DNA of 64,000 nucleotides from an uncultured Acidobacteriota bacterium (GTDB taxonomy: Bacteria > Acidobacteriota > Thermoanaerobaculia > Gp7-AA8): NCBI GenBank assembly GCA_963758195.1, contig CAVWUH010000002.1, positions 715,618-779,617 of the forward strand. Direction: 5' to 3'. Position numbers and translations under genes: made by a program. A model generated the notes under the pieces. That model saw only the letters and a program-made list of their open reading frames with translations, had not been told where the DNA came from and did not search any database. Of this stretch, positions 3,025-64,000 are shown piece after piece. Numbering within the stretch: the first letter of the stretch is position 1; every line of letters starts with the position of its first letter.

Positions 3025-3105
3025 GCCCGCACTCTGGAATGCGATCTCGCGAGCGAGGTCGTCAACGTCACGAGCGGCGGCATGAATGGAACGAACGGTC
3101 GAAAC

Positions 3106-3195
3106 GAGGAGGGCGGGCTTACAGCCCGCCGATTCTTTTGGGTGGGAGGGGTCCAACCTTCCGCCCAAAACCGGCGGGCTATAAGCCCGCCCTCC
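3106..3195. repeat. Family-3 structured palindromic element (GGAGGGCGGGCTTA...TAAGCCCGCCCTCC), copy 1
   Basis: Outer inverted arms, each containing a GGCGGGCT-loop-AGCCCGCC hairpin. Inner palindrome ttttgggYggg...ccgcccaaaa. About 85% identical to copy 2 over the arms. Confidence 0.8.
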
Positions 3196-3216
3196 TTTAC
3201 GGCTCGCTCGTGCCGG

Positions 3217-6658: not shown

Positions 6659-6886
6659 GCGGTTGCTGGTTGCTGGTTGTCTGTGGAGCATCGCTCTCGC
6701 GACATCGCCGTGGACACGAGGAGGGCGGGCTTAATTAGCCCGCCGGTTCTGGGCGGGGGACGGAGGATGGACCAGGGACGGACGGCACGGGCGCGGGACG
6801 AGCCCCCGCCCAAAAGAATCGGCGGGCTATAAGCCCACCCTCCGGAATCTACGCGGGACCCACAGATAACCAGGAACCAGCAACAC
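6659..6886. repeat. Heptamer-repeat hairpin H2 whose loop contains the family-3 element
   Basis: Arms ggttgctggttgctggttgtctgtgg (6659-6686) and ccacagataaccaggaaccagcaacacc (6860-6886) are complementary. About 170 bp, including repeat 6718-6843, lies between them. Confidence 0.7.
6718..6843. repeat. Family-3 structured palindromic element, copy 2, nested inside heptamer hairpin H2
   Basis: Same arms as copy 1 with a longer central part. It lies between the two complementary arms of H2 (6659-6686 and 6860-6886). Confidence 0.8.
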
Positions 6887-6942: not shown

Positions 6943-7500
6943 ATGGAAACGGATCAGCAGCTCGTCGAGCGCACCCGCACCGGAGACGACGACGCCTTTC
7001 GCGTCATCGTCGAGCGGCATTCGCGATCGGTCTACCGCGCCGCCTATCGCATCACCGCCAATGCCGCCGATGCCGATGACGTCGTGCAGGAGACATTCCT
7101 CCGCGCCTATCGCGCCCTCGGCACCTTCGACGCCCGCGCCGCGCTGACGACCTGGCTGCACCGCATCGCCGTCAACTGCTCGCTCGATCTCATCGACTCG
7201 CGCCGGCGCCGCGAGGGTCGCATCGACGCCCGTGAGGATCTCTCGCTCCTCGCCTCATCCTCCGCCACTCCCGATCGCGTCGCACTCGGCGGCGAGATGC
7301 AACGAGCCATCGCCGACGCCATGGACGCGCTCACCGGCAACGAGCGCACCGCGTTCGTCCTCCGCCACTTCGAAGGCATGCCGCTCGAGGAAATCGGTCA
7401 GATCCTCGGCACACGCCTCAACGCCACGAAAAACACCGTCTTCCGCGCCGTGCGGAAACTGAGGCATCAATTGCAGCCATTCACGGGGTCCCTGGTATGA
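6943..7500 (+). CDS. RNA polymerase ECF sigma factor (sigma-70 regions 2 and 4)
   Basis: DDVVQETFLRAYRAL (region 2.2), WLHRIAVNCSLD (region 2.4) and a region-4 helix-turn-helix (LEEIGQILGTRLNATKNTVFRAVRKLR). Confidence 0.9.
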   Translation: METDQQLVERTRTGDDDAFRVIVERHSRSVYRAAYRITANAADADDVVQETFLRAYRALGTFDARAALTTWLHRIAVNCSLDLIDSRRRREGRIDAREDLSLLASSSATPDRVALGGEMQRAIADAMDALTGNERTAFVLRHFEGMPLEEIGQILGTRLNATKNTVFRAVRKLRHQLQPFTGSLV

Positions 7501-13358: not shown

Positions 13359-13439
13359 GAGCGAGTCGCCGAGTCTACGAGTCGCCGAGTTGACAAGGGA
13401 GCCGCGGCTTCTCGCCGACTGGACGACTCGGCGACTCGA

Positions 13440-14814
13440 CTACTCCCCCAGTCCATACTTCTCCATCCTCCGATACAACGCCGCGCGCGAAATCCCCAGC
13501 GCCTCGGCGACGCGGGAGATGTTGCCTTCGTAGTGCTGCATGCACTTCACGATCATGCGCTTCTCCATCTCGTCGAGGGTGATCGTCCCAGCGTCGGGAA
13601 GAGCGACGTTGCGATGGTCGCCGCCGCCGGACGAGGCGTCGCGGACGGCGAAGAAATCGTCGACGTCGAGCTCGCGGCCGCCGCGGATCAGCACCGCGCG
13701 CTCGATGGTCTGGCGGAGCTGGCGGATGTTGCCCGGCCAGTTCTGCGACTTGAGCCATTCCATCGCCCGCGGCGAGATCGATTGCACGTCGGTGCGGTAG
13801 ACCTCGTTCGCGAGTCGCAGGAAATGATTCGCGAGTCGCGGCACATCGCCGCGGCGATCGCGCAGCGGTGGAAGATGGATGTTGATGAGGTTCAAGCGAT
13901 AGAGCAGGTCCTCGCGGAACTCGCCGCGCTGCACGAGCTCGTGCAGCGGACGATTCGTCGCCGCGATGACGCGCAGATCGACGGTGCGCGGGCGACTCGA
14001 GCCGAGCACTTCAAACGTCCGGTCCTGCAGCACGCGCAGCAGCTTCACCTGCGACGAGCCGTCGAGCTCGCCGATCTCATCGAGAAAAATCGATCCGCCG
14101 TCCGCGGTCTCGAATCGCCCGCGCCGCGTTTCGCGCGCGTCGGTGAACGCGCCGCGGACGTGGCCGAACATTTCGCTCTCGAACAGCGTCGACGAAATGC
14201 CGCCGAGGTTCACTTTCACGAACGGACCGCCGCGGCGCCGGCTGTTGCGATGCACGGCTTCGGCGATCAGCTCCTTGCCCGTGCCGCTCTCGCCGGTGAT
14301 CAGCACCGACGCTTCGGTCGGCGCGACGCGGCCGATCATCTCCAGGATGCGGATGCATCTTCGCGTCGCTGCCGATGATGTTCGAGAAGTCCCACTGCTC
14401 GTCGAGCTCCGCGCGCGTCGGATCTTTCTCCGCGACGCGCACGTCGGCGAGATTGAGCGCGGTCTCGACCGACTGCAGCACCGTCGCGTTGACCCACGGC
14501 TTGGTGATGAAGTCGGCCGCGCCGCGTTTCATCCCTTCGACGGCGAGCTGAATCGATCCCCACGCCGTCATCAGAATCACCGGCATCGCCGGTTCCTCGG
14601 CGTGAATGCGCTCGATGAGATCGAGCCCTTCCTCGCCGCCGGTCTGGCGGCTGAAGTTCATGTCCTGAATCACCAGCCGCGGCTTCGCGCGCCGCATCTC
14701 CGCCAGCGCCTCCATCGGCGTGTGCGCCGACACCGTCGCATAGCCGTGCTGCTTGAGCAGCAGCGCGAGCGATGCCGTGATGGAGGTGTCGTCGTCGACG
14801 ATCAGAATGGACAT
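13440..14814 (-). CDS. sigma-54-dependent Fis-family (NtrC-type) response regulator, carrying a single frameshift
   Basis: REC domain (ILIVDDD...LVIQDMNF). AAA+ sigma-54 activator domain (GESGTGKE, the GAFTGA-like motif GHVRGAFTDA, RVIAATN). C-terminal Fis helix-turn-helix. Deleting one extra C in 'gcatccgcatcc' near 14340 restores the frame (IIGSDAKMHRILEMIGRVAPT). Confidence 0.85.
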
Positions 14815-14820
14815 GCCGTT

Positions 14821-14896
14821 GGTAGACGGTCGACAGGTGACAGTAGACAGGAGTGAGCCCCCGCTCACGAGCCCTGTCACCCGTCACCCGTCTACC
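14821..14896. repeat. Heptamer-repeat hairpin H5 (gacaggt units)
   Basis: gacaggtgacagtagacagg ... cctgtcacccgtcacccgtctacc. Lies between the permease 3' end and the ntrC-type start. Confidence 0.7.
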
Positions 14897-17350: not shown

Positions 17351-17458
17351 TAATCAGTATCACTGATCGCTGATCGCTGATCGCTTGCGAGCTCGCGAGG
17401 CACGCGACTGGTCCTGTGACGCACTGCGATACTGCAGATCAACCAGTCAACCAGTCAC
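17351..17458. repeat. Heptamer arrays H6 ((ctgatcg)3 and (caaccagt)2), within the operon between the ABC ATPase and permease genes
   Basis: cactgatcgctgatcgctgatcgc ... gcgatactgcagatcaaccagtcaaccagtcacc. The arms are only partly complementary. Confidence 0.55.
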
Positions 17459-18150: not shown

Positions 18151-18266
18151 AGATCGCAGATCGCAGATCGCAGATCGCGGATCGCAGGAGAAACAAACCA
18201 CGAAGGTCGCACGTGCAGTGGCAGCCTTCGGTCGTCGCTGCGTTCTGCGACCTGCGTTCTGCGATC
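18151..18266. repeat. Heptamer arrays H7 ((agatcgc)5 and (tgcgttc)2 plus gcgatct), within the operon between the MFP and ATPase genes
   Basis: agatcgcagatcgcagatcgcagatcgcggatcgc ... tgcgttctgcgacctgcgttctgcgatct. GATC recurs every 7 nt. Confidence 0.6.
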
Positions 18267-19508
18267 TCATTTCAGTCGTACCTTCTTCACCGCATCGAAC
18301 TCCGTCATGTCCGAGATCACCAGCTCGTCGCCTTCCTTCACGCCGTTCTCGATCTCGATGGCATCCTCGCTGCCGAGACCGAAGCGGATGGGGATGCGCA
18401 CCGCGTCGTCGCCGCGGATCACGAAGGCGTGATCGGTGCTCGTGCGTCCCAGCGCGCCGCGCCGCGCCATCAGCACATTCGCCCTGCGGCCGGTCACGAC
18501 GGCGACGTCGACGCGCAGGTTGTTGCGCAGCAGCGGATGCGACGGCTGATCGAGCGTGATGGAAAAACGCACGACGCCATCGACGATGCGCGGATCGACG
18601 CTGTCGATCACACCGCCGATGGTCGCGTTGTCGAGCTTCACCTGGGCGCGCATCCCCGCGGAAAGCCGCGCCGCATGGATGTCGGAGATCGAAGCATCGA
18701 CGCGATACGCCGACAGATCAGCGATGCGCGCCAGGATGTCGCCGCGGCGAATCGTCGCGCCGACCTCGCTGACGATCGACGTCAGCACGCCGTCGCGATC
18801 GGCGCGGAGCATGGCCAGCTCGAGCTGCCGCTTCGACTCATCGCGATCGCGGCGCGCCGTGCTGACGTCCGCCTGCGACGCAGCGAGCTGCATATCGCGC
18901 GAGCGCAACGCCCGCGTCAACGCTTCCTGCAGCTGGCGCAGCTCGATGTCGCTCTTCTTCGCCGCCGCGCCCGCGGCCAGCGCGTCCTGTTCGGCGATGA
19001 GTCCATCGGCGCGGAGCTTCGTCTTCTGCTCCGCCGTGTAATGCACGATCTGCGCGTCGAGCTTCTTCTGTTCGATCTGCGCCTTGAGATTCTCGATCGT
19101 CTCTTCGAGCCGCAGCCGCAGCTCCGCGCTCGTATTCTCGAGCTGCGTCACACGATCGTCGAGGCGAGCGGCATCGAGACGCGACGCCGAGGTATCGAGC
19201 GTCAGCAGCTCATCACCGATGCGCACGTGATCGCCGGCGCGGCGCCCGACGCGCAACACCCGCGCCTCGACCGGACTCGAAACGACCTGCTCGATGAGCG
19301 GCACCACCGAACCGTTGGCCTGCACCGTCGCCTCGACGGCCCCACGCTCGACGCGCGCCGTCTGAATCGCATCGCGCTGCATCGAAGGCCGCAGCCACTC
19401 GACCGTCGACGCCAGAAAAAACGCCGCCGCCGCCAGCGCGACAACAATCACGACCACGCGCCGCAAGACAACCCGCCGCCTGACTTCCGGAGTGATCTCG
19501 ACATCCAT
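18267..19508 (-). CDS. HlyD/MacA-family periplasmic adaptor (membrane fusion protein)
   Basis: N-terminal transmembrane anchor, long coiled-coil region (LENTSAELRLRLEETIENLKAQIEQKKLD...), and beta-barrel/lipoyl motifs. It is the first gene of the ABC efflux operon. Confidence 0.85.
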   Translation of the reverse strand: MDVEITPEVRRRVVLRRVVVIVVALAAAAFFLASTVEWLRPSMQRDAIQTARVERGAVEATVQANGSVVPLIEQVVSSPVEARVLRVGRRAGDHVRIGDELLTLDTSASRLDAARLDDRVTQLENTSAELRLRLEETIENLKAQIEQKKLDAQIVHYTAEQKTKLRADGLIAEQDALAAGAAAKKSDIELRQLQEALTRALRSRDMQLAASQADVSTARRDRDESKRQLELAMLRADRDGVLTSIVSEVGATIRRGDILARIADLSAYRVDASISDIHAARLSAGMRAQVKLDNATIGGVIDSVDPRIVDGVVRFSITLDQPSHPLLRNNLRVDVAVVTGRRANVLMARRGALGRTSTDHAFVIRGDDAVRIPIRFGLGSEDAIEIENGVKEGDELVISDMTEFDAVKKVRLK

Positions 19509-20283: not shown

Positions 20284-20332
20284 GGGATGGGCATTGTAGT
20301 GTCGGCGCGACTTGCGCACGCTGCAATCTCCT

Positions 20333-20434
20333 GTCATCCCGAGCGTCGAGCGAGGGACCTGGGCGGGCGGGTGGCAGAAGGAGCGTGCCTCGTGCCGCTC
20401 GCCACCCAGGTCCCTCGCTACGCTCGGGATGACA
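20333..20434. repeat. Family-4 ~100-bp palindrome (TGTCATCCCGAGCGTCGAGCGAGGGACCTGGG...CCCAGGTCCCTCGCTNCGCTCGGGATGACA), copy 1
   Basis: Perfect long inverted arms with a variable centre. Three copies in the window. Confidence 0.85.
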
Positions 20435-21380
20435 TGCGTGTATTGATACGCCGAAGTTGCCGCGCGCTGAATCCCGCGCGTTGCGCGACGGCCTCCATCG
20501 TCAGTCCAGGATCGTGCATCAGCGTGCGCGCCAGCTCCGCGCGGACGCGCGTCGAGAACTGGTGCACGGAGATCCCCGTCGCCGCGCGGAACGTTCGCGT
20601 GAGGCTGCGCGCGCTCATGCCCGCGAGCTCCGCGAGCTCGTCGAGCGTGGAACGCGAACGGGGGTTCTGCACGATGAAATCCTGCACGCGATGCACGCCC
20701 GGATGAATGTGCGTGCGGTAATCGAGATACACGCTGCTCTGTTTCTGCGCGCCATCCCGCCGCAGGTACACCACCATCTCCCGCGCCACCTCGGCGGCGA
20801 CGATCGGCCCGTCGGCCTGCTCGATGAACGCCAGCGCCATGTCGATGCCCGAGGCAATGCCCGCGCTCGTCGTGAGCTCGCCGTCGCTGACATAGAGACG
20901 ATCCTCGAGCACCTTCGCCCGCGGAAACCTCCGCGCCAGCTCCGCCGTGCGCGACCAATGCGTCGTACAACGCCGCCCATCGAGCAGTCCCGCTTCGCCG
21001 ACGATGAATGCACCGGTACAAACCGACGCGATGTGCGCGCCCGCCCGCGCCGCATCCGCCAACCACCGCGTGATCGCCCGATCGACCTTCTGCGTCGCCG
21101 CGTACGGCATGCCCGGCACGATCACGATGGGACCAGTTTGCTGTTCGCAGTTCGCAGTTCGCAGGAGAACCCCCGCCCCAGGAGCCGGCGACGCCGTGTC
21201 GTTCCTGCCAGCTGCGAGCTGCGAGCCGCGAGCTATTTCCGGCAGCCGGTCGAGATCGGCCAGCACGATCCCCTGATGCGAGTGCACGCGATCGCGGTTC
21301 GAGCAGACGCGGATCCGGTAGCGGCCTTTCGCTTCCGAGAAGGCCTGCAACGGCCCGGCGAGGTCGAGGATCTCGACCTC
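20418..21380 (-). CDS. GlxA-family transcriptional regulator (DJ-1/PfpI domain plus AraC helix-turn-helix) carrying an in-frame ~99-nt repeat insertion
   Basis: DJ-1/PfpI motifs (ILDLAGPLQAF, IASVCTGAFIVGEAGLLDGRRCTTHW) and a C-terminal AraC helix-turn-helix (LDELAELAGMSARSLTRTFRAATGISVHQF). Hairpin H8 (21141-21233) is translated in frame as RGSQLAAGRNDTASPAPGAGVLLRTANCEQQTG. The start codon is uncertain and probably non-ATG. Confidence 0.7.
   Translation of the reverse strand, partial: EVEILDLAGPLQAFSEAKGRYRIRVCSNRDRVHSHQGIVLADLDRLPEIARGSQLAAGRNDTASPAPGAGVLLRTANCEQQTGPIVIVPGMPYAATQKVDRAITRWLADAARAGAHIASVCTGAFIVGEAGLLDGRRCTTHWSRTAELARRFPRAKVLEDRLYVSDGELTTSAGIASGIDMALAFIEQADGPIVAAEVAREMVVYLRRDGAQKQSSVYLDYRTHIHPGVHRVQDFIVQNPRSRSTLDELAELAGMSARSLTRTFRAATGISVHQFSTRVRAELARTLMHDPGLTMEAVAQRAGFSARQLRRINTRMSSRA
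21141..21233. repeat. Heptamer-repeat hairpin H8 ((gttcgca)3 ... (ctgcgag)3) inserted in frame in the GlxA-family CDS
   Basis: ctgttcgcagttcgcagttcgcagg ... ccagctgcgagctgcgagccgcgagc. It interrupts the DJ-1 domain between two conserved blocks. Confidence 0.7.
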
Positions 21381-29117: not shown

Positions 29118-30607
29118 ATGACCGCCATCGAACAATCAACCCCTACCCGCTATCCCGACGTGCGCAACTACATCGGAGGAACGTTCGTCGAGCCCGAACG
29201 TGATGGGCATCTCGACGTCACGAATCCGACCGACGGGACATTGCTCTCGCGCGTGCCGCTGTCGGGGATGGCCGAGGTCGACCGGGCGGTGGAGGCGGCG
29301 AAGAAAGCGCAGCCGGGATGGGCGGCGACGCCGATCAAGGAGCGCGTGCAGGTCTTCTACCGATACAAGGCGCTGCTCGAGAAGAACATCGACGAGCTCG
29401 CGGCGCTCGTGACCGAGGAGAACGGGAAGATCCGCAGCGAGGCGCGCGGCGGAAGTGCTCAAGTCGGCGGAGCTCTGCGAGTTCGCCTGCTCGCTGCCGC
29501 AGATCATCCCCGGCGAAGTGCTCGAAGTTTCGCGCGGCGTCGAGTGCCGCGTCGAGCGTTATCCGGTCGGCGTCGTCGCCTCGATCACGCCGTTCAACTT
29601 CCCGAACATGGTTCCGAACTGGACGATCCCCAACGCGATCGCCCTCGGCAACTGCATGATCCTCAAGCCGTCCGAGCTGGTGCCGCTCAGCGCGGGCCGC
29701 ATCGCCGAGCTGCTGCGCGAAGCCGGACTGCCCGACGGCGTGCTTCAACGTCGTGCACGGCGGACAGGAGACGGTCGAAGCGATCTGCGATCATCCCGGC
29801 ATCGAAGCGATCAGCTTCGTCGGCTCGACGAAGGTCGCGAAGATCGTCTATCGCCGCGGCTCCGCGAATCTCAAGCGCGTGCTCGCGCTCGGCGGCGCGA
29901 AGAATCACCTCATCGTCATGCCCGACGCCGAGCCGGAGATGACGTCGAACAACGTCGTCGCGTCGATGTCGGGCTGCGCCGGCCAGCGCTGCATGGCGGC
30001 GTCGGTGATGATGGCCGTCGGCGACGACGGATCACATCATCGAGCGGATGGCGAACATCGTCGCGCGCGATGGTGCCCGGCGAGCACCTCGGGCCGGTGA
30101 TCTCGGCGGCGGCGAAGGAGCGCATCGAGCGCTACATCACCGAGGCCGAGAAGGCGGGCGCGAAGGTGCTCGTCGATGGCCGCGGCTACGTCGTGCCGGG
30201 CAAGGAAGGCGGCTACTACGTCGGCCCGACGCTCATCGATCACGTCACGCCCGACATGCGCATCGCGCAGGAAGAGGTCTTCGGTCCGGTGATGGTGATC
30301 ATCCGCGCGAAGGACGTCGACGAGGCGCTGGCGGTGCAGCATGCGCTCGCCGTACGGCAACGCGGCCTCGGTCTTCACCGAGAGCGGCGGCGTCGCGCGT
30401 TACGTGATGGAGAACGCCAGCGCCGGCATGGTCGGCGTCAACGTCGGCGTCCCGGTGCCGCGCGAGCCGTTCGGCTTCGGCGGCTGGAACGAATCGAAGT
30501 TCGGCGTCGGCGACATCACCGGCCGCGGCTCGATCGAGTTCTGGACGAAGGCGAAGAAGATGACGACGAAGTGGAACAAGGAAGCGGGCGTGAACTGGAT
30601 GTCGTAA
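29118..30607 (+). pseudogene. mmsA: CoA-acylating methylmalonate-semialdehyde dehydrogenase, with four or more frameshifts
   Basis: ALDH segments are spread over three frames: N-terminus MTAIEQSTPTRYPDVRNYIGGTFV; VLKSAELCEFACSLPQ...ITPFNFP; VHGGQETVEAICDHP...LGGAKNHLIVMPDA...SGCAGQRCMAAS (catalytic Cys); EEVFGPVM; NPYGNAASVFTESGG. Confidence 0.8.
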
Positions 30608-30609
30608 TC

Positions 30610-30642
30610 GGTTGCTGGTTGTCGGTTGTCGGTTGTCTGCGG
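30610..30642. repeat. single-arm heptamer array (ggttgtc/ggttgct)x4 adjacent to family-2 copy c
   Basis: ggttgctggttgtcggttgtcggttgtctgcgg. No complementary arm was found within 150 nt. Confidence 0.5.
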
Positions 30643-30702: not shown

Positions 30703-30802
30703 GGACCGCCGGCGTCCTCGCCGGCTGGGCGAGCGGCGTCCCGCCGCTCGCGGGCGGGCGTCGAGACGACGCCGCCCCAGCCGCCGAGACGGCGGCGGTC
30801 CA
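30703..30802. repeat. Family-2 element, copy c
   Basis: About 95% identical to copy a. A single (ggttgtc)n heptamer array lies 60 nt upstream at 30610-30642. Confidence 0.85.
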
Positions 30803-30808
30803 GCCGTT

Positions 30809-39651: not shown

Positions 39652-40536
39652 TGCCGATCCGCAAGATCGCCATCCTCCTGCACGAGCGCCATCGCGATGC
39701 GCTGTTGACCGCTTATCGCATCTGGGGACTCGCCGCACACTGGCGCAAGCGCGGCATCACCGTCGAGCCAATCTTGGGCATCGAGCGCGAGATCGACGCC
39801 GATCTGCTGATTCCGCATCTCGATCTCTCGTACATCCCCGACGATTACTGGGCGTTCCTGCAACGACATCCGAACGTCGTCAATCGCCGCGTGCGCGACA
39901 TCCGCAAGATCGCGATCAGCACGAATCTCGTGCAGCTCACCGATTCCTGGCAGGGACCCGTGATCGTGAAGACGAACCTCAACTATCGCGGCGTGATGGA
40001 CGCGCAACTCCTCGGCCCAACACGAACGTTCGCAAAGCGCATCGCCAATCGCATCACGGATCGCCTCGCCCGCCCCTCCTTCATCGAACGGAGATTCCTC
40101 GGCTGGCGCAGCACGCCGCATCGCTATCACATCTTTCGCAGCAAGCACGACGTTCCCCGCCCCGTCTGGACAAACGACGCGCTCGTCGTCGAACGCTTTC
40201 TCCCCGAGCGCCGCGGCAGGCAGTACGTGATGCGCATCTGGGCCTTCTTCGGCGATCGCGGCCAGAGCAAGGTGTTCTACGGCGACGATCCCTGGATCAA
40301 AGGGCAGAACTCCGAGATGCACGTCCTCGCCGATCCCCCTCCGCCCGCCATCGTCGAAGCCCGCCACCGCCTCGGTCTCGACTACGCCAAGATGGACTAC
40401 GTCCTTCACGACGGCGAGGCGGTGCTGATCGACGTCAACGTCACGCAAGGCCTGCGATTGCCGACCGAGCCGTCGATGCTCGAGCGATCGCGGCACATGG
40501 CGGACGGGTTGGCGTACTTCGAACGATCGCGGATCG
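39651..40536 (+). CDS. ATP-grasp-like hypothetical protein; no stop codon before the next gene
   Basis: Starts one nt inside the symporter stop (ctgATGc). Beta-rich motifs (GPVIVKTNLNYRG, YVMRIWAFFGDRG, EAVLIDVNVTQG) resemble an ATP-grasp fold. The reading frame continues through hairpin 40524-40624 into the downstream gene with no stop. Confidence 0.4.
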
Positions 40537-40624
40537 CAGATCGTGGATCGCAAAAGACGCCCCCATCACCGCGCGATGAAGAACATTTGCGCACCTGCGA
40601 TCCGCGATCTACGGTCCGCGATCT
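40524..40624. repeat. Heptamer-repeat hairpin H10 ((gatcgca) units), translated in frame between the ATP-grasp and beta-ureidopropionase genes
   Basis: gatcgcggatcgcagatcgtggatcgca ... tgcgatccgcgatctacggtccgcgatct. No stop codon occurs within or before it. Confidence 0.65.
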
Positions 40625-42190: not shown

Positions 42191-43069
42191 ATGCGCACGC
42201 TCACGCGCGACGACTTCGACGCGCTGCACCTCGCGTTCGTCGAAGCCTTCAGCGACTACGTCGTCAAGCTCGCGCCAACGCGCGAGCAACTCGCGGAGAT
42301 GCTGACGCGCCGCGGCTACGTTCCCGAAGCCTCGGTGGCCGAGGTCGAAGGCGACCGCATCGTTGCCTTCACGCTGAACGGAATCGACGGCACGAGCGCC
42401 TACGACACCGGCACCGGCGTCGTCCCTTCCCATCGCCGCCGCGGTCTCGCCAACGCGATGCTGGCGTTCCTCGAGCCGCTGCTGCGCGAGCGCGGCTGTA
42501 CGGAGTACATCCTCGAAGTGCTCGAAGCCAACGCCGCCGCTCGCGCGCTCTACCTCGGCGCGGGGTTTCAGGAGACGCGCGGGTTGCAGTGCTGGACGTT
42601 CGAGGCTCAAGGGCGCACAGGCTCACAGGCTCACAGCGTTTTTGCCCCGGTGAGCCTCGAAGCCCGTGAGCCTGTGAGCCACTGGTGGAGCGTCACTCCC
42701 TCCTGGCAAAACTCCTCGCCCTCGATCGCCCGCGCCCGCGTTCCGCACGTCACGCTCGGCGACGAGAACTGCTACGCGATCCTCTTCCCATCGAACGGCG
42801 ATCTCGCGCAACTCGCGGTGCGTCCCGAGATGCGCCGGCAGGGAATCGGAACGCGACTCCTTCACGAAGTCGCGACACTCGCCGGCAAACCGCTGCGCAT
42901 CATGAACGTCGACGAGCGCGACGAAGGGATTGCTCGTTTTCTCGATGCCGCCGGCGCGAAGCGGATGGTGCGGCAGATCGAGATGCGTTTTCAGCTCGCA
43001 GCTGGCAGCTCGCAGCTCGCAGCGGAAACCACATCGACTCCCGGTCGACTTCTGCCAGCTGAGAGCTGA
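42191..43069 (+). CDS. tandem-GNAT N-acetyltransferase with in-frame repeat insertions
   Basis: Two acetyl-CoA-binding motifs (HRRRGLANAML; RRQGIGTRLLHEV). Hairpin H12 is translated in the inter-domain linker (GRTGSQAHSVFAPVSLEAREPVSHWW). The C-terminal tail (QLAAGSSQLAAETTSTPGRLLPAES) is a translation of hairpin H13. Confidence 0.65.
   Translation: MRTLTRDDFDALHLAFVEAFSDYVVKLAPTREQLAEMLTRRGYVPEASVAEVEGDRIVAFTLNGIDGTSAYDTGTGVVPSHRRRGLANAMLAFLEPLLRERGCTEYILEVLEANAAARALYLGAGFQETRGLQCWTFEAQGRTGSQAHSVFAPVSLEAREPVSHWWSVTPSWQNSSPSIARARVPHVTLGDENCYAILFPSNGDLAQLAVRPEMRRQGIGTRLLHEVATLAGKPLRIMNVDERDEGIARFLDAAGAKRMVRQIEMRFQLAAGSSQLAAETTSTPGRLLPAES
42616..42680. repeat. Heptamer-repeat hairpin H12 ((caggctcac)2 ... 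(gtgagcct)2) in frame inside the GNAT CDS linker
   Basis: cacaggctcacaggctcacagcgtttttgccccggtgagcctcgaagcccgtgagcctgtgagcc. Confidence 0.65.
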
Positions 43070-43082
43070 GAGCTGAGAGCTA
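42992..43082. repeat. Heptamer-repeat hairpin H13 ((cagctcg)n ... (gagctga)3) forming the GNAT C-terminal tail and stop codon
   Basis: cagctcgcagctggcagctcgcagctcgcagc ... tgccagctgagagctgagagctgagagctaag. Confidence 0.65.
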
Positions 43083-43086
43083 AGCC

Positions 43087-43728
43087 ATGGAAATCAAAAT
43101 CTGCTGCATCAGCAGCCACGATGAAGCGCGCATGGCCATCGACGCCGGCGCGAACATTCTCGGACTCGTTTCGGCGATGCCGAGCGGGCCGGGCGTCATC
43201 GACGAAACGCTCATCGCATCGATCGCCGCCGCTGTCGATGCACAGACCTTTCTGCTCACCTCGCTGCGCGATGCCGATGCAATCGTCGCGCAGCATCGGC
43301 GTTGCGGGACGACCGGCATTCAGATCTGCGACGCCCTTCCGCCCGGAAACTTCCGCGCGTTGCGCGAAGCGTTGCCGGGCGTGCGACTCGTCCAGGTCAT
43401 CCACGTCGTCGGCGAGCAGTCGTACGACGAAGCGATGAACGCGGCGAAGGAGGCCGACGCGTTGCTGCTCGATTCGGGCAATCCCGCGCTGCAGATCAAA
43501 GAGCTCGGCGGCACGGGACGCGTCCACGATTGGACGATCAGCAGACGCATCTGCGCGGACGCCGGAGTGCCGGTCTTTCTTGCCGGAGGTCTCCGTCCGG
43601 AAAACGTTGCCGACGCGCTCGCCATGACCGGCGCGAGCGGTGTCGACATCTGCAGCGGCGTGCGCACCGACGACCGACTCGATCGCGCAAAACTCGATCG
43701 TTTCATCTCTGCGGTTACTGGTTTCTAG
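43087..43728 (+). CDS. trpF: N-(5'-phosphoribosyl)anthranilate isomerase
   Basis: MEIKICCISSHDEARMAIDAGANILGLV, a (beta/alpha)8 fold and C-terminal VFLAGGLRPENV match TrpF. Confidence 0.8.
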   Translation: MEIKICCISSHDEARMAIDAGANILGLVSAMPSGPGVIDETLIASIAAAVDAQTFLLTSLRDADAIVAQHRRCGTTGIQICDALPPGNFRALREALPGVRLVQVIHVVGEQSYDEAMNAAKEADALLLDSGNPALQIKELGGTGRVHDWTISRRICADAGVPVFLAGGLRPENVADALAMTGASGVDICSGVRTDDRLDRAKLDRFISAVTGF

Positions 43729-43798
43729 TTGCTGGTTGTCTGCGGTGACTCGATGTTCAGGAGAGATCCACAGATAACCAGCAACCAGGAACCAGGAA
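43714..43798. repeat. Heptamer-repeat hairpin H14 (ttgctgg type) 3' of trpF
   Basis: gttactggtttctagttgctggttgtctgcggtg ... cacagataaccagcaaccaggaaccaggaacg. Confidence 0.7.
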
Positions 43799-43877: not shown

Positions 43878-44276
43878 ATGCCACAGGGGAACGTTCTGGT
43901 GGTGGAGGATGACGAGGCGATCCGAAGGCTGCTCATCGATTGCCTCCAGGAACATTCCTGCCTCGTCGACGGCGCGCGCGACGGCCGCGACGCCCTGCAC
44001 CAGATCACGACCAAACGCTACGCCGTCATCGTCCTCGACGTGATCATGCCCTTCATGAGCGGCATCGACTTCCTCGACTCCCTGCAAGCGCTCCTCACCG
44101 ACCCCTCGCTCACCACCATCGGCCGCCCTCCCGCCGTCCTCATCGTCACCGCCATCCCCTGCGACGTGATTCCCAGCGGCGAGATCCAGCAACGCTTCCC
44201 CACCATCGTCCGCGACGTGTTCCGCAAACCAATCGACGTGACCGCGCTGGCGACGAGGGTCGAGAGCCTGTTGTAA
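43878..44276 (+). CDS. single-domain response regulator (receiver/CheY-like)
   Basis: VLVVEDDEAIR...AVIVLDVIMPFMSG...FRKP. Receiver domain only, with no output domain. Confidence 0.8.
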   Translation: MPQGNVLVVEDDEAIRRLLIDCLQEHSCLVDGARDGRDALHQITTKRYAVIVLDVIMPFMSGIDFLDSLQALLTDPSLTTIGRPPAVLIVTAIPCDVIPSGEIQQRFPTIVRDVFRKPIDVTALATRVESLL

Positions 44277-44280
44277 AAAA

Positions 44281-44515
44281 GATCGCGGATCGCAGTTCGC
44301 AGATCGCGGGAAAACCACGGCAAACTCCCTGTCATCCCGAGCGTCGAGCGAGGGACCTGGGGGCCGGGTGGCAGAAGGCTCGTGCCTCGCGCCACCCCGC
44401 CCAGGTCCCTCGCTCGACGCTCGGGATGACATGTTTGGGGTTCTCTCCTGCGATCCGCGATCTGCGATCTGCGATCTCGTTGCAATCTGCGATCTCGCAC
44501 GAGCGATCTACAATC
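44281..44515. repeat. Heptamer-repeat hairpin H15 ((gatcgcN) and (gcgatct) arms) carrying family-4 copy 2 in its loop
   Basis: Left gatcgcggatcgcagttcgcagatcgcgg. Right ctgcgatccgcgatctgcgatctgcgatctcgttgcaatctgcgatctcgcacgagcgatct. Confidence 0.7.
44330..44431. repeat. Family-4 palindrome, copy 2, nested between the arms of heptamer hairpin H15
   Basis: Flanked by a (gatcgcN)4 array on the left (44281-44309) and a complementary (gcgatct)n array on the right (44449-44515). Confidence 0.85.
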
Positions 44516-44521
44516 CGCGCC

Positions 44522-47391
44522 ATGCGTCGATTGCTCTCCATCCTTCTCATCCTCGCCGCGAGCGCGCTGAGCATCTCCGCCCAGCCCTACGACCCTTCCC
44601 TCTTCGCCGAAATGCGTTGGCGGATGATCGGGCCGTTTCGCGGCGGGCGCACCGTCGCCGCGGCGGGCGATTCCGGCGCAGCCGAACGTCTTCTACATCG
44701 GCGTCAACAACGGCGGCGTCTGGAAGACCGACCGACTACGGCCGCACGTGGACGCCGATCTTCGACGACCAGCCGACCGGCTCGATCGGCGCGATCGCCG
44801 TCGCGCCGTCCGATCCGAACATCATCTACGTCGGCAGCGGCGAAGGGCTTGCAGCGCCCCGACCTCTCGATCGGCGACGGCATCTACAAGTCGACCGACG
44901 CCGGCAAGACGTGGACGCACCTCGGCCTGCGCGACGGCCAGCAGATCCCGCAGATCGTCGTCGATCCGCACGATCCCGAACCGCCTCTTCGTCGCCGTGC
45001 TCGGCCATCCCTACGGCCCGAACGCGGAGCGCGGCATCTTCCGCTCGACCGACGGCGGCAAGACGTTCGCAGAAGGTGCTCTACAAGGACGAGAACACCG
45101 GCGGCATCGACGTCGCCTTCGATCCGTCGAACCCGCAGACCGTCTACGCCGCGCTGTGGGAGGCGCGGCAGGGGCCGTGGGAGAACGGCGCGTTCTCGCG
45201 GGCCGGGCAGCGGCCTGTTCAAGTCGACCGACGGCGGCACGACGTGGAAGCAGCTGACGAACGGACTGCCCGACGTCGAGCGACGGCCTCGGCCGCATCG
45301 GCATCGACGATCTGCGCCGAGCGATCCGAAGCGGCTGTACGCGATCGTCGACGCGCACGAAGCGGGCGGGCTCTATCGCTCCGACGACGCCGGCGAGAGC
45401 TGGACGCGCGTCAACGACGGACGAGCGCATCTGCGGCCGCGGCGGCGACTTCGCCGAGGTCAGCGTCGATCCGAAGAACCCCGACGTCGTCTACGTCGCC
45501 AACACGTCGACCTGGAAGTCGACCGACGGCGGCAAGACGTTCACCGCGTTCCGCGGCGCGCCCGGCGGCGACGACTATCACCGCATCTGGATCAATCCCG
45601 AACGACCCGAACATCATCCTGCTCGCCGGCGACCAGGGCGCGGTCATCACCGTCAACGGCGGCGCAGACCTGGAGCTCCTGGTACAACCAGCCGACCGCG
45701 CAGTTCTACCACGTCAACACCGACAACGCGTTTCCGTACCGGGTCTGCGGCGGACAGCAGGAGAGCGGCTCGGCGTGCGTGCCAGCCGCGGCGACGACGG
45801 CGCAGATCACGTTCCGCGACTGGCATCCGGTCGGCGTCGAGGAGTACGGCTACGTCGCGCCCGATCCGCTCGATCCCGACATCATCTACGGCGGCAAGGT
45901 GACGCGCTACGACCGCCGCACCGGCCAGGTGCAAGACGTCACGCCCGAAGCCGCTGCGCGGCGCCGGCTATCGCGTCGTGCGCACGCGCCGGTCGTCTTC
46001 TCGCCGGTCGATCCGCACGTGCTCTTCTTCGCCTCGAACACGCTGTGGAAGACGACGAACGGCGGCAGCAGCTGGACGGAGATCAGCCCCGACCTGACGC
46101 GCAAGACGTGGGCGATGCCGGCGAGCGTCGGCATCTACACGAACACGCCCGCGGCGAAGCCGACGCAGCGCGGCGTCATCTACGCGGTCGCGCCGTCGCC
46201 GCTCGACGTCAACCGCATCTGGGCCGGCACCGACGACGGCCTGATTCACGTCACGACCGACGGCGGCAAGAACTGGAAGGACGTCACGCCGCCGCAGCTC
46301 GACGCCGTGGGCAAGGTCTCGATCCTCGACGCCTCGCACTTCGACGCGCAGCACCGCCTACGCCGCGGTCAACACGTTCCGGCTCGACGACCTGCGCCCG
46401 CACATCTATCCGCACGCACGACGGCGGCAAGACGTGGACGGAGATCGTCAGCGGCATCCCCGACGGCGCGATCGATCAACGTCGTCCGCGAAGATCCGAA
46501 GCAGAAGGGCCTGCTCTTCGCCGGCACCGAGCGCAGGTCTACGTCTCGTTCGACGACGGCGACCACTGGCAGTCGCTGCGGCTCAACATGCCGGCGACGT
46601 CGATCCGCGATCTCGTGATGCACGAACGACGACCTCGTCGTCGGCACGCACGGCCGCGGCTTCTGGATCCTCGACGACATCGACGCCGCTGCGCCAGAGT
46701 CGCCGACGCCGACAGCCGACGCGTTCCTCTTCAAGCCCGCAACGCGCGCTGCGCGTCCGCTGGAACACGAACACCGACACGCCGCTGCCGCCCGACGAGC
46801 CCGCGGGCCAGAATCCGCCCGACGGCGCGATCATCGACTACTACCTGGCGTCGCCGTCGGCGACCGGCGACGCTCGAGATCCTCGACGCATCCGGCGCGC
46901 TCGTGCGCCGCTACTCGAGCAGCGACGTCGTCGCGCCAGTCGCCGATCAGGAGAACGTGCCCTGGTACTGGATCCGTCCACAACGCGCGCTCCCCGCCAC
47001 CGCCGGCATGCACCGCTTCACCTGGGATCTCCGCTATCCGCCCCTGCCGGAGAAAGCCCCCAGCTTCTCCATCGCCGCAACCCCCGGCGACACCGCTCCC
47101 GATTCGATCGCACCCTGGGCCATGCCCGGCACGTACACGATCAAGCTCACCGCCAACGGCCACACATTCACGCAGCCGCTGATCGTTACCATGGACCCTC
47201 GCGTGAAAACCTCCCGCGAAGATCTGGCGCAACAGTTCTCCCTCTCGATCCGCCTCTACCAGGCACTGAAAGCCGAAACCGAAGGCTCCGACCGCGCCAC
47301 GAAACTGCGCCGCCTCCTCGACACCCTCCAAAGCGCCGACGTCGCGCCGACTGCTCAGTTGGTCACGGCGGTGGAGGATGCGTTGAAGTAG
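44522..47391 (+). pseudogene. BNR/sortilin (VPS10)-repeat glycosyl-hydrolase-like secreted protein, with many frameshifts
   Basis: Signal peptide MRRLLSILLILAASALSISA. Repeated SxDxGxTW BNR motifs (STDAGKTWTH, STDGGKTF, STDGGTTWKQ, TTNGGSSWTE, TTDGGKNWKD, DDGDHWQS) are spread over all three plus-strand frames from 44.5 to 47.4 kb. Confidence 0.75.
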
Positions 47392-47447
47392 TTCTCCGCA
47401 TCTCCGCGTCTCCGCGTGAAATCCATCTCACGCGGAGACGCGGAGGA
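47392..47447. repeat. Heptamer-repeat hairpin H16 (ctccgcg units)
   Basis: ttctccgcatctccgcgtctccgcgtgaaatccatctcacgcggagacgcggagg. Lies between the BNR hydrolase and GH57 genes. Confidence 0.7.
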
Positions 47448-59228: not shown

Positions 59229-60980
59229 GTTTGGAAGCCGTACGCCGCGAGCGTGATTTCACACCCGTTCGCGCTTGGGAAGGGGACGTTCAGCGTTTGC
59301 TCCTCGTTCGCGAAGTTGAAGGCGAGGATGATTTCGTCCACGTTGGTCCAGCGTCGGACGAACAGCACGCGTCGTTCGTCGTCGGCGTGGGTTTCGAGGC
59401 GCGAGAGATCGAGGCTGCGCAAGGCGGGGGTTTCGCGGCGCAAGGTGAACAGCTGTTTGTAGAATGAGCGAAGCGATTCGTCTTCGATGCGCGTGAGCTT
59501 CGAGCGGAGGAACGTCGATTCATCGTGCGGGTCGGGAGGTACGCCGGACCAGATGAAGTCGTCGAACTCTTCGCTGCGGCCCTTGCGTACGGCTTCGATG
59601 AGATCCGCGTCGGAGTGCGAGGTGAAGTACTGGAACGGTGCGGTCTCGCCGTACTCCTCGCCCATGAAGAGCATCGGAAGGAACGGCGAGAGCACGATCG
59701 CCGCGGCGGTGAGGCGCACCTGCTCGGGCGACACGAGTGTCGTCAGGCGATCGCCCATCATCCGATTGCCGATCTGATCGTGCGTCTGCGCGGAGACGAC
59801 GAAGCGCGCGCCGTCGCTCGTCTTCGGATCGGCGCCGTACTTGCGGCGGCGATAGGGCGAGTGTTGTCCGATGTAGAGAAATCCCTTCGTGAGCACGCGC
59901 GCGAGATTGCTGACCTTGCGGCGGGAAGCTCTCGTAGTAGCCGTCGCTCTCGCCGGTCAGCAACGTGTGCAGCGAGTGGTGGTAATCGTCGGCCCATTGC
60001 GAGTCGAAGCCGAGGCCTTGCTGTGCACGCGGAGTGATCACGCGCGGATCGTTCAGATCGCTCTCGGCGATGCTGTAGACCTTGCGCCCGAGCTCGCGTG
60101 CGCGTGCGTGTACGGCGGCGTTGAGATCCTGCAGGAACGGCTCGGCCGAGGGATCGACGATCGCGTGCACGGCATCGACGCGCAGGCCGTCGATGTGAAA
60201 CTCGTCGATCCATTGCAGCGCGTTGTGGATGAAGAACCAGCGCACGTCGTCGCTGTGCGGGCCGTCGAAGTTGAGCGCCGGACCCCAGGGCGTCGCGTAG
60301 CGCGCGGTGAAGTACGGGCCGTATTCGCTCAGGTAGTTTCCCTCGGGGCCGAGGTGGTTGTAGACGACGTCGAGAAGCAGGGCGAGACCGCGTTGATGAC
60401 AGGCATCGACAAGCCGCTTGAGCGCGCGCGGACCGCCGTACGTCGATTGCGCGGCGCCGATGTACGTTCCGTCGTAGCCCCAGTTGCGCGAGCCGGGAAA
60501 CTGCGCGATCGGCATCAACTCGATGGCGGTGATGCCGAGGTCTTTGAGCGCATCGAGATGTGGAACGATCGCGTCGAACGTCCCTTCGTCGGTGAACGTG
60601 CCGACGTGCAGCTCGTAGAGAACGTAGTCCTCGAGCGCGATGCCGCGCCAGCCGTCGTCGTGCCATTCGAAATCGCCGGCGATGACTTCTGAAGCGGCGT
60701 GAACGCCGTCCGGCTGCGAGCGCGACGCGGGATCGGGACGCTCGGTTCCGCCGAGGTCGAAGAGATAGCGCGTGCCCTCGCCGCAATCGTCGACGATGCC
60801 TTCGTGATAGCCGTTCGGCGCCTTGTGCAACGGCACGCGACGTCCGTGCGGCGCGACGATGTGCACCTCGACGCGCTCACGATGCGGAGCCCACACGCGA
60901 AACTCGCAGCGATTGTCGTCGAGCACGTGCGCGCCGAGGAGAGGTCTGTGCGTTTGATCAGGCATGAGGGAAAAACTCAT
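59195..60980 (-). CDS. treZ: malto-oligosyltrehalose trehalohydrolase (GH13), carrying a single frameshift
   Basis: N-terminus through the catalytic regions (GLRVDAVHAI, SDLND, YHHSLH) is in frame 59520..60980. The C-terminal domain (LSPFLPMLFMGEEYGE...) is in frame 59195..59896. The frameshift is near 59900. Confidence 0.85.
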
Positions 60981-61095
60981 GTCATCCCGAGCGTAGCGAG
61001 GGACCCGGGTGGGTGGGGGCGCGCAACACGATCTTGAATCACGAGTCGCGTGCCACACACCCACCCAGGTCCCTCGCTCGACGCTCGGGATGACA
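60980..61095. repeat. Family-4 palindrome, copy 3
   Basis: Lies between the treZ start and the glgB end. The arms match copies 1 and 2; the centre diverges. Confidence 0.8.
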
Positions 61096-61097
61096 GG

Positions 61098-63116
<2,019 letters not shown>

Positions 63117-63193
63117 CGTCTCGGCGCTCGCCGGCGAAGCGCTCTCCTGCCTACTGCCTACTGCCAACTGCCTACTCGTCTCGGGTACCGCCA

Positions 63194-64000
63194 TCAGCCT
63201 TCCTTCAACGTGGGATTCGCAATGGGATTCACCTGATTTGCAGCATTCGCGCCGCGCACCTGCAACATCTGGGCGGCGATGCTGATCGCGATCTCGTGCG
63301 GATCGTTCGTGCCGAGGTCGAGGCCGACGGGGCAGAAAAACGCGCGCGTCATCTCCTCGGCGAGTCCGGCGTCGAGGACGTCCTTGCGCAGACGCTTCGC
63401 CTTGGCGTTACTGCCGATGACGCCGAGGTACGGGAACGTGCGCGTGCGGAGAATCTCGATGAGGATCGGCTTGTCGGTGGTGTGTCCCATCGTCATCAGC
63501 ACGACGAACGATCCCTCGGCGATCTTCGCGACCTCCCGCGGCATCTCCGGCGCGAGAATCTTCGTCAGCTTCGGCGAATCGGGCAGCCGCGAGAGCCACT
63601 CCTCGCGCGGATCGATGCAGGTGATGCGGCAGTCGAGCCGCACGAGCATATCGATCAGCGCGCCGGCGACATGGCCGGCGCCGAAGACGACGATCTTCCA
63701 TCGCGTGACATTGAAGGCTTCGAAGTAGACACGCACGATCCCGCCACAGGTCATGCCGATGTCCTTCTCGAGACTCCACTGCACGAAGCGCGTCTTCGGC
63801 GCCGCGTCATCGAGCAGCAACCGCTTTGCCTCTTCGATCGCCCGCACCTCGACCTTGCCACCGCCGACCGTCCCGAACACGCGCCCCTCGTCCGTCACCA
63901 GCATCTTCGCGCCGCGATCCTGCGGCGTCGAGCCGAGAGTGTCGACGACGGTTACGGCGACGAAGGGCGTGCCTTGCTCGACGAGGGAGCTCTGCGATTC
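63194..64000 (-). CDS. XdhC/CoxI-family molybdenum-cofactor insertion accessory protein, 5'-partial at the window edge
   Basis: Rossmann-like [15 protein letters not shown], and C-terminal [24 protein letters not shown] typical of XdhC. The ORF continues past the window end. Confidence 0.7.

Follow-up and report, generated by a model that had tools for sequence, protein, structure and literature searches.

Among the closest described systems is the CGTC/TGTC-tagged REP superfamily (Di Nocera, De Gregorio and Rocco 2013, PMC3733652), whose members carry an unpaired TGTC or CGTC tag at one end of the unit, lie in intergenic DNA mostly as outward-tag (HH) dimers accompanied by rare inward-tag (TT) dimers and by singletons, and have no dedicated transposase found. 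These traits are shared by family 4, one of several palindrome families in the stretch of DNA from a soil acidobacterium that was analysed here (the window, 64 kb). The family-4 unit has a short stem with a 5-nt loop; its tail is CCT, where the superfamily has a CCA-like 3-nt tail, and its stem is a weak 4+2 bp, compared with a superfamily stem of 8-9 bp that starts with A-T pairs and carries a loop of 4-5 nt (PMC3733652). Judged by its sequence features, family 4 resembles the superfamily in most respects, stem strength excepted. Nesting of this kind, with REP dimers inserted into palindromes, is on record for Anabaena variabilis, Thermomicrobium roseum and Halothiobacillus neapolitanus (PMC3733652); the present case differs from that report in its acidobacterial host, in the tandem-heptamer hairpins that enclose the dimers, and in the orthologs, which document both the filled and the unfilled state.

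REPIN-RAYT systems (Bertels and Rainey 2011, PMC3116915; Nunvar 2010, PMC2817692) are alike in being inverted doublets of a short palindromic unit that form a long hairpin of about 100 nt, in leaving no target duplication, and in having intergenic copies that vary between relatives. The GTAG tag of those systems is absent here, however, and searches of the window, of 0.73 Mb of metagenome loci (by a crude motif scan) and of the annotated orthologous loci yielded no RAYT.

The enclosing hairpins have their own precedent in Xanthomonas, where two convergent intergenic GGGAATC arrays lie on opposite strands, can form a stem-loop, and differ in length and sequence from one related genome to the next although they stay in the same slot (Rehm et al. 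2015, PMC4692102). The window abounds in hairpins with tandem-repeat arms: a strict detector finds 14 in 64 kb, each a pair of close, convergent, intergenic tandem-repeat arrays of the Xanthomonas type, and about 20 are seen by eye. Here, unlike in Xanthomonas (PMC4692102), a single genome has arrays of many unit types (GGTTGCT, AGATCGC, AGTTGGC, AGCTCGC, and the octamers CTCCGCGT, CGAGTCGC and AGGCTCAC), none of them G-quadruplex-type, and between relatives one unit type gives way to another at a given slot. An excess of heptanucleotide tandem repeats in prokaryotes is credited to Mrazek (2007) as cited in PMC4679880 and PMC4692102, and is attributed to polymerase slippage in work cited in PMC4679880.

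Two other element types were considered and rejected. The inserts have TIRs, as expected of a MITE derived from an insertion sequence by deletion, but target duplications flank 0 of 62 copies and no parent insertion sequence was found. Non-autonomous elements of the IS200/IS605 type (PATEs) have asymmetric ends with subterminal hairpins and insert 3' of a fixed tetra- or pentanucleotide on one side only, whereas the ends here are symmetric inverted repeats and only a slight preference is seen in the flanks, on both sides. The hairpins that IS200/IS605 and RAYT enzymes recognise are those at the ends of their own elements. The first-pass annotation of the window had compared the nesting to insertion into REP hairpins by IS200/IS605 and REP-associated tyrosine transposases, an imprecise analogy because the insertion sequences that target REP hairpins belong instead to the IS3, IS110, IS4, IS256 and IS5 families (Tobes and Pareja 2006, PMC1525189). 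With IS1397, ISKpn1, IS621 and other IS110-family members the present elements share the placement of a mobile element inside an intergenic palindrome; those insertion sequences are protein-coding and have a demonstrated or nearly 100% target association (PMC1525189), whereas the inserts here are non-coding palindromes of 90-155 nt whose association with hairpins does not exceed chance. REP dimers in palindromes (PMC3733652) and inverted heptamer arrays (PMC4692102) are already known. What is new here is orthologous evidence for three states of one locus, and the combination of REP-like dimers with heptamer hairpins in an acidobacterium.

Two hairpins and their palindromic inserts

The first of the two filled hairpins, H2, has arms of 25 nt at 6662-6686 and 6860-6884, which lie 173 nt apart and are 92% complementary. 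The left arm is a GGTTGCT-type heptamer array (GGTTGCT array at 6661-6679, arm end GTCTGTGG) with an orthologous arm in contig L202, and the right arm reads CCACAGATAACCAGGAACCAGCAAC. Next to the left arm is a remnant of the original loop, 6687-6704, homologous to the loop in L202; homology between the window and L202 extends up to 6704. The remainder, 6705-6859, is an inserted block absent from L202 and made up of the family-3 element with an outer stem, CGCCGTGGACACG ... TCTACGCGG. Its limits are those of the BLAST break at 6704/6860, opposite 18 nt in L202; the same block with its outer stem also occurs in L208, and the flanks of the other family-3 copy are similar. The palindrome core as delimited in the first pass, 6718-6843, consists of two inverted REP-like stem-loops (GGAGGGCGGGCTTA..AGCCCGCC), which form its ends (AGGAGGGCGGGCTTA..AGCCCGCC), with a T-rich run inward of each. 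The first-pass annotation had placed this copy exactly between the H2 arms. It does lie between them, but not exactly, as 31 nt and 16 nt of other sequence intervene, and its position is not apical: the insert occupies the junction of the loop and the right arm.

Family 3 starts with AGGAGGG, and a pattern scan of the genome contigs with the family-3 terminus gave no match. The other copy in the window, at 3107-3196, lies outside any hairpin; the same slot in contig L203 holds a GGTTGCT heptamer hairpin. Each family-3 half (6821-6839 on the minus strand; 3107-3140) is a strong GC stem-loop followed by the T-rich run GATTCTTTTGGG, and in sequence the family looks like a pair of convergent intrinsic terminators with T-runs in both directions. 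The half units fit the intrinsic-terminator pattern (GC-rich stem, loop of 3-8 nt, T-run), unlike the heptamer hairpins, which gave no intrinsic-terminator call and have no T-runs. Periodic hairpins usually start 0-10 nt past a stop codon; H2, which is flanked by divergent genes, is an exception.

The second hairpin, H15, is formed by AGATCGC-type heptamers at 44280-44311 and GCGATCT-type heptamers at 44446-44477 (arms of 32 nt, 28 paired positions). Its left arm begins 4 nt past the stop codon of a response-regulator gene (43878-44276), the named homologues of which are from Thermoanaerobaculia MAGs; the host is probably a Thermoanaerobaculia-like acidobacterium. The family-4 palindrome that had been placed between these arms is indeed enclosed by them, at 44330-44431; it is an HH dimer of a TGTC-tagged unit, 102 nt long, with perfect arms of 32 nt (TGTCATCCCGAGCG...). 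The insertion point is the 5-nt apical loop of the hairpin (CAAAC TCCC/T GTTTG, where the slash marks the junction). With the insert removed in silico, H2 and H15 each fold as an ordinary hairpin (z -8.5 in both cases), and the inserts themselves self-fold with z of -13.0 (H2, family 3) and -5.8 (H15, family 4). Heptamer flanks are absent from the family-4 copies at 20332-20434 and 60980-61095 and from the family-3 copy at 3107-3196, as first described, and the accompanying remark that a hairpin is no prerequisite for insertion is correct.

Scanning metagenomes with the family-4 terminus retrieved 120 contigs from soil, 733 kb in total. The unique HH dimers number 62, next to at least 4 TT pairs and some 40 solo termini. 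Each of the 62 dimers opens with TGTCATCC or CGTCATCC and closes with the complement, and their outer ends carry an unpaired TGTC tag (CGTC in some copies). The unit is predicted to fold by pairing TCCC/GGGA and GC/GC around a 2x2 GA/GA internal loop, with the loop GTCGA and the tail CCT; the weak stem gives a dG of -3.9 kcal/mol and a z of 0.16. The TT pairs (L090 3071-3134, L133 2068-2153, L173 1382-1444, L199 557-618) share a conserved linker of about 60 nt, GGTTGTTTCTTCC...CACCCNTCCCCC, in either orientation, an arrangement that recalls BIME mosaics. No target duplication was seen in the 62 family-4 copies, and orthologous comparisons did not define one for families 2 and 3 either. The flank preference consists of CC on the left in 25 of 62 copies and GG on the right in 16, with neither in 31. 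The family-4 terminus recurs, with different interiors, in Gemmatimonadaceae and Acidobacteriaceae MAGs.

Several searches for a mobilising gene, which took in 64 kb of the 5.08-Mb genome, were negative within their scope. A crude six-frame motif scan of the window and the 120 loci (0.73 Mb) detected no RAYT or Y1 enzyme, no candidate mobilising ORF lay between TIR pairs, Pfam searches of 20 window ORFs (from the lower-GC parts) and the annotated orthologous loci contained no transposase, and no parent insertion sequence with family-4 ends was found. Rfam yielded no family match; at the gathering threshold and at E<=1 it gave only spurious miRNA-precursor-like matches to long hairpins.

Palindrome families 2 and 5 occupy the same intergenic DNA of the window as the periodic hairpins. 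A single GGTTGCT/GGTTGTC array at 30608-30642, directly past the stop codon at 30607 and with its partner arm absent, precedes the family-2 palindrome at 30703-30808; the array is absent at this position in the ortholog L109. Likewise, a single (CTGCCTA)4 array at 63147-63176, also with its partner arm absent, adjoins the stop codon (63194) of a minus-strand gene near the family-5 half copy at 63050-63097. These arrays had been described as abutting the palindromes: the arrays are real (30608-30637 and 63147-63176), but gaps of 60 nt and 49 nt separate them from the elements.

States of the orthologous loci

Orthologs of H2 were traced to contigs from the 90% cluster of the sigma factor gene at 6943-7500, and the orthologous loci are 84-95% identical to the window. 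Contig L202, which is 88.5% identical to the window over 13.6 kb, has the same hairpin in the same place, with homologous arms and left loop and a loop of 36 nt, and without the family-3 element. The 18 nt of L202 between the break in homology at 6704 and its resumption at 6860 are unrelated to the window, and the possibility that this loop filler is a remnant of family 3 was rejected (P=0.63). Contig L208, which is 94.6% identical in the sigma region and groups with the window in the tree ((window,L208),L202), carries family 3 complete with the outer stem found in the window, but has lost the left arm and keeps only a remnant of two units from the right arm. This remnant shows that the absence of arms in L208 is a secondary loss.

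The H2 locus is therefore found in three states: arms only (L202), arms with family 3 (window), and the element with its arms largely deleted (L208), the last demonstrating that the element persists without them. Homology of the arms places their origin before the split between the window and L208; they are therefore not made by the family-3 element. The direction of change is ambiguous, as a gain of family 3 on the branch leading to the window and L208 and a loss in L202 are equally parsimonious.

At H15, the arms are present in the window, L205 and L207. L205 has family 4 at junctions identical to those in the window, which indicates one shared insertion, while the H15 loop in L207 is filled by a different compound palindrome of a dispersed family, GACGGCCGCCCTCGGCCGTC. 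The comparisons show that loops repeatedly hold palindromic inserts and that the two palindrome classes are separable and are gained or lost independently. The Logan contig L001 is from the same strain, is broken at the repeat, and is uninformative on insertion states.

Large blocks of other tandem and palindromic repeats were observed in the relatives (L205 13457-13994; L202 8640-8830 and 14154-14571), composed of CCCCTCTCCCC-rich units some 150 nt long, arrays of the 9-nt repeat CACCTCGCG, and further units of roughly 32 nt; the window has short hairpins or different sequence in these places. A relative further removed from the window (L204 4600-4900) has a palindrome, GTCATCTTGAGCG...CGCTCAGGATGAC, in the region preceding the same sigma factor gene, so that palindromic elements have gathered in this intergenic region repeatedly.

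Frequency of nesting and competing explanations

The claim that the elements target hairpin loops is not supported when the metagenome loci are compared with random intergenic placement, the null that the first-pass annotation had itself named. Across the 733 kb, 6 of 164 element instances lie in loops of periodic hairpins, and about 4.6 would be expected at random intergenic positions (P=0.32). The null model combined the 164 instances with 62 period-7/8 hairpins, 6 of them filled, and uniform placement in intergenic DNA assumed to make up 10% of the sequence, as it does in L202; P varies from 0.03 to 0.5 for intergenic DNA of 20% to 8%, the excess being nominally significant at 20%. Six of the 62 unique complete family-4 copies are strictly enclosed by periodic arms, with a few more visible by eye, since the detector misses some filled hairpins (L111, L171, L185). 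A 2-fold loop preference is compatible with this frequency test. For the window alone, where loops make up about 7% of the intergenic DNA (again assumed at 10%), P is about 0.05 for two of five family-3 and family-4 copies and about 0.2 for two of about 12 copies of all families, so the coincidence there is not by itself beyond chance. Most family-4 copies lack heptamer flanks, and roughly 80-90% of copies lack an enclosing inverted repeat.

Two further comparisons bear on the distribution of inserts. In 9 of 45 family-4 copies, with 2.2 expected, the two flanks complement each other significantly better than shuffled flank pairs do, a control that represents shuffled pairs and not random intergenic DNA. 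The result shows that nesting is real; flank complementarity was dropped as evidence of targeting, random intergenic DNA being itself rich in inverted repeats. Arms interrupted by an insert were seen in 0 of 62 cases (P<=0.005), with arms offering about 1.4 times the target size of loops. The data thus show no enrichment over the random expectation, and loops favoured over arms. The loop-only pattern is consistent with selection that keeps stems intact and equally with the accessibility of single-stranded loops, two causes that sequence alone cannot separate.

The periodic hairpins themselves are mostly empty (12 of 14 in the window and 56 of 62 in the metagenome loci), with loops of 10-60 nt. 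In a census of periodic inverted repeats over all sequence analysed, period 7 dominates the strongly periodic class (257, compared with 83 of period 8 and about 13 of each other period; period 9 was set aside as coding artefacts). A scan with the BNR protein at 44524-47388 gave relatives only about 40% identical, of no use as orthologs, which served as an outgroup sample for the hairpin census.

The explanation that we consider probable, with some reserve, is that two independent classes of intergenic palindrome coexist, that nesting roughly follows the share of intergenic DNA taken up by loops, and that the loop-only pattern is most simply tolerance. The first class comprises the hairpins with arms of tandem 7-nt (less often 8-nt) units, which occupy many intergenic slots. 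The second comprises REP- or MITE-like palindromes of 90-155 nt without target duplication (family 4 an outward-tag dimer, family 3 a terminator-like pair), presumably spread in a transposition-like manner by an enzyme acting in trans. Such elements are gained and lost in intergenic DNA, and a minority come to lie in the loop of a pre-existing hairpin; nesting would be about as frequent as chance predicts, since much of the short intergenic DNA is taken up by hairpins. Selection would then account for the loop-only pattern, since a self-folding insert in a loop keeps the outer stem and may be tolerated, while an insert in an arm destroys the hairpin. Together with its orthologs in their three states, the window documents an acidobacterial case in which REP-like palindromes and tandem-repeat hairpins build layered intergenic structures, and in repeat-dense genomes nesting alone is not evidence of targeting.

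Active targeting, in which palindromes integrate preferentially into the single-stranded apical loops of extruded hairpins, is unlikely, though several details lean towards it. Three independent loop fillings occur among a few orthologous hairpins (family 3 in H2, family 4 in H15, and the other family in H15 of L207), the H15 insertion lies in a 5-nt apical loop, and some metagenome copies sit at the centre of short palindromes (L104, between GCACAAGCA and TGCTTGTGC; L121, between GCCT and AGGC). Arms are never interrupted, elements nest in each other's centre (in L158 the family-4 copy enclosed by a hairpin itself contains another TGTCATCCTGAGC palindrome), and the REP dimers within palindromes of three other species (PMC3733652) are further parallels. 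The six observed nestings are nevertheless no significant excess over 4.6, inverted repeats enclose only a small minority of copies, the insertion point often lies away from the apex of the loop (89 and 9 nt from the arms in L097; the loop/right-arm junction in H2), and no candidate enzyme was found in the sequence searched.

A bolder suggestion, and one that we rate as a longer shot, is that a structure-specific enzyme captures single-stranded apical loops, so that heptamer hairpins and the elements alike would serve as landing pads and nested palindromes would expand outwards from their middle. It agrees with the confinement of inserts to loops, the apical site in H15, the junctions at palindrome centres in several metagenome copies, and the nesting of one element in another. 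Were loop targeting true, it would point to a structure-specific integration activity for the CGTC/TGTC REP class, for which no transposase is known.

It is very improbable that a hairpin and its inner palindrome form one composite unit, be it a structured element of RNA or DNA or a composite mobile as a whole. Larger composite repeats do exist, as some metagenome copies of the TGTCATCCTGAGCGGG subfamily in different contigs share long conserved flanks (..CAACCCAACGCAACNTTGGCC on one side, GGNGGTTGTGCGCGCC.. on the other). Orthologs of H2 and H15, however, have the parts apart from each other, most hairpins of the families to which these arms belong are empty, and there is no Rfam family match. 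The first-pass alternative that heptamer arms are generated at or by element termini, to which the closeness of single arrays (50-60 nt) to one family-2 and one family-5 copy might have lent some colour, is scarcely credible and is refuted by the homologous arms without an element in L202 and the predominance of empty hairpins, the unique loop sequence always found between arms and element ends, and the secondary loss of arms around the element in L208.

Turnover of hairpins at intergenic slots

The same orthologous intergenic slot carries hairpins of different unit types in relatives, the slot being kept and its occupant replaced. One slot holds CGAGTCGC, AGGCTCAC or GGTTGCT units among the relatives, a second holds the CTCCGCGT octamer or the AGATCGC heptamer, and a third has a heptamer hairpin in L203 and the family-3 palindrome in the window. 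The replacement sites lie at 13362-13445, 42603-42680, 47393-47445, 14821-14896 and 3099-3214 in the window, and at L202 15812-15899, L203 17118-17272, 18642-18729 and 1400-1510, L205 8661-8756 and L207 9417-9564 in the relatives. The replacement of one hairpin type by another at the same slot, just past a stop codon, is a stranger observation than the nesting and probably the more fruitful lead.

At 17359-17457 the arrays are non-complementary, the left one built of GATCGCT and the right one of CAACCAGT, and the ortholog in L202 (19779-19915) is a regular GGTTGCT hairpin; by this comparison the window copy looks like a half-replaced hairpin. In three others (42993-43081, 21145-21224 and 18158-18267) the arms differ by an identical mismatch in every unit (e.g. 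AGCTCGC vs AGCTGAG), so that each arm appears to have been homogenised internally and not kept complementary base by base. The asymmetry of G.T and A.C mismatches, a measure of RNA- versus DNA-level selection, gave no signal, with too few sites.

Hairpins also differ between relatives at the ends of genes. The stop codon of a PRAI-like gene (43087-43728) lies inside the left arm of a GGTTGCT hairpin at 43713-43745; in L207 there is no hairpin at the end of this gene, which terminates differently, so that in the window the hairpin has reshaped the gene's 3' end. At 40523-40623 the window has only a GATCGCG hairpin, and the corresponding regions of L207 (1787-2920) and L205 (5712-6659) have an extra abhydrolase gene on the minus strand, followed in L207 by a perfect palindrome with periodic CACTTTT/CACTTTC arms.

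Tandem-heptamer and -octamer hairpins with other, often AT-rich, units occur in unrelated Acidobacteriota and in a Gemmatimonadaceae MAG (for example CGTTTCT, AGTGGTC, CCATTTA and GGGACTG, among L003, L009, L015, L022, L033, L038, L041, L064 and L078). The hairpin architecture thus has a wide distribution in these phyla.

Two observations concern genes of the window. Domains like those of a glycogen-branching enzyme are split over two minus-strand ORFs about 230 nt apart (61098-61664 and 61899-63194), with Alpha-amylase_C in one and CBM48 and the start of the catalytic domain in the other, and the gene may be disrupted. The 96-nt tRNA-Thr called by ARAGORN at 46303-46398 (minus strand) lies inside a BNR/sortilin-like gene and is probably a false positive.
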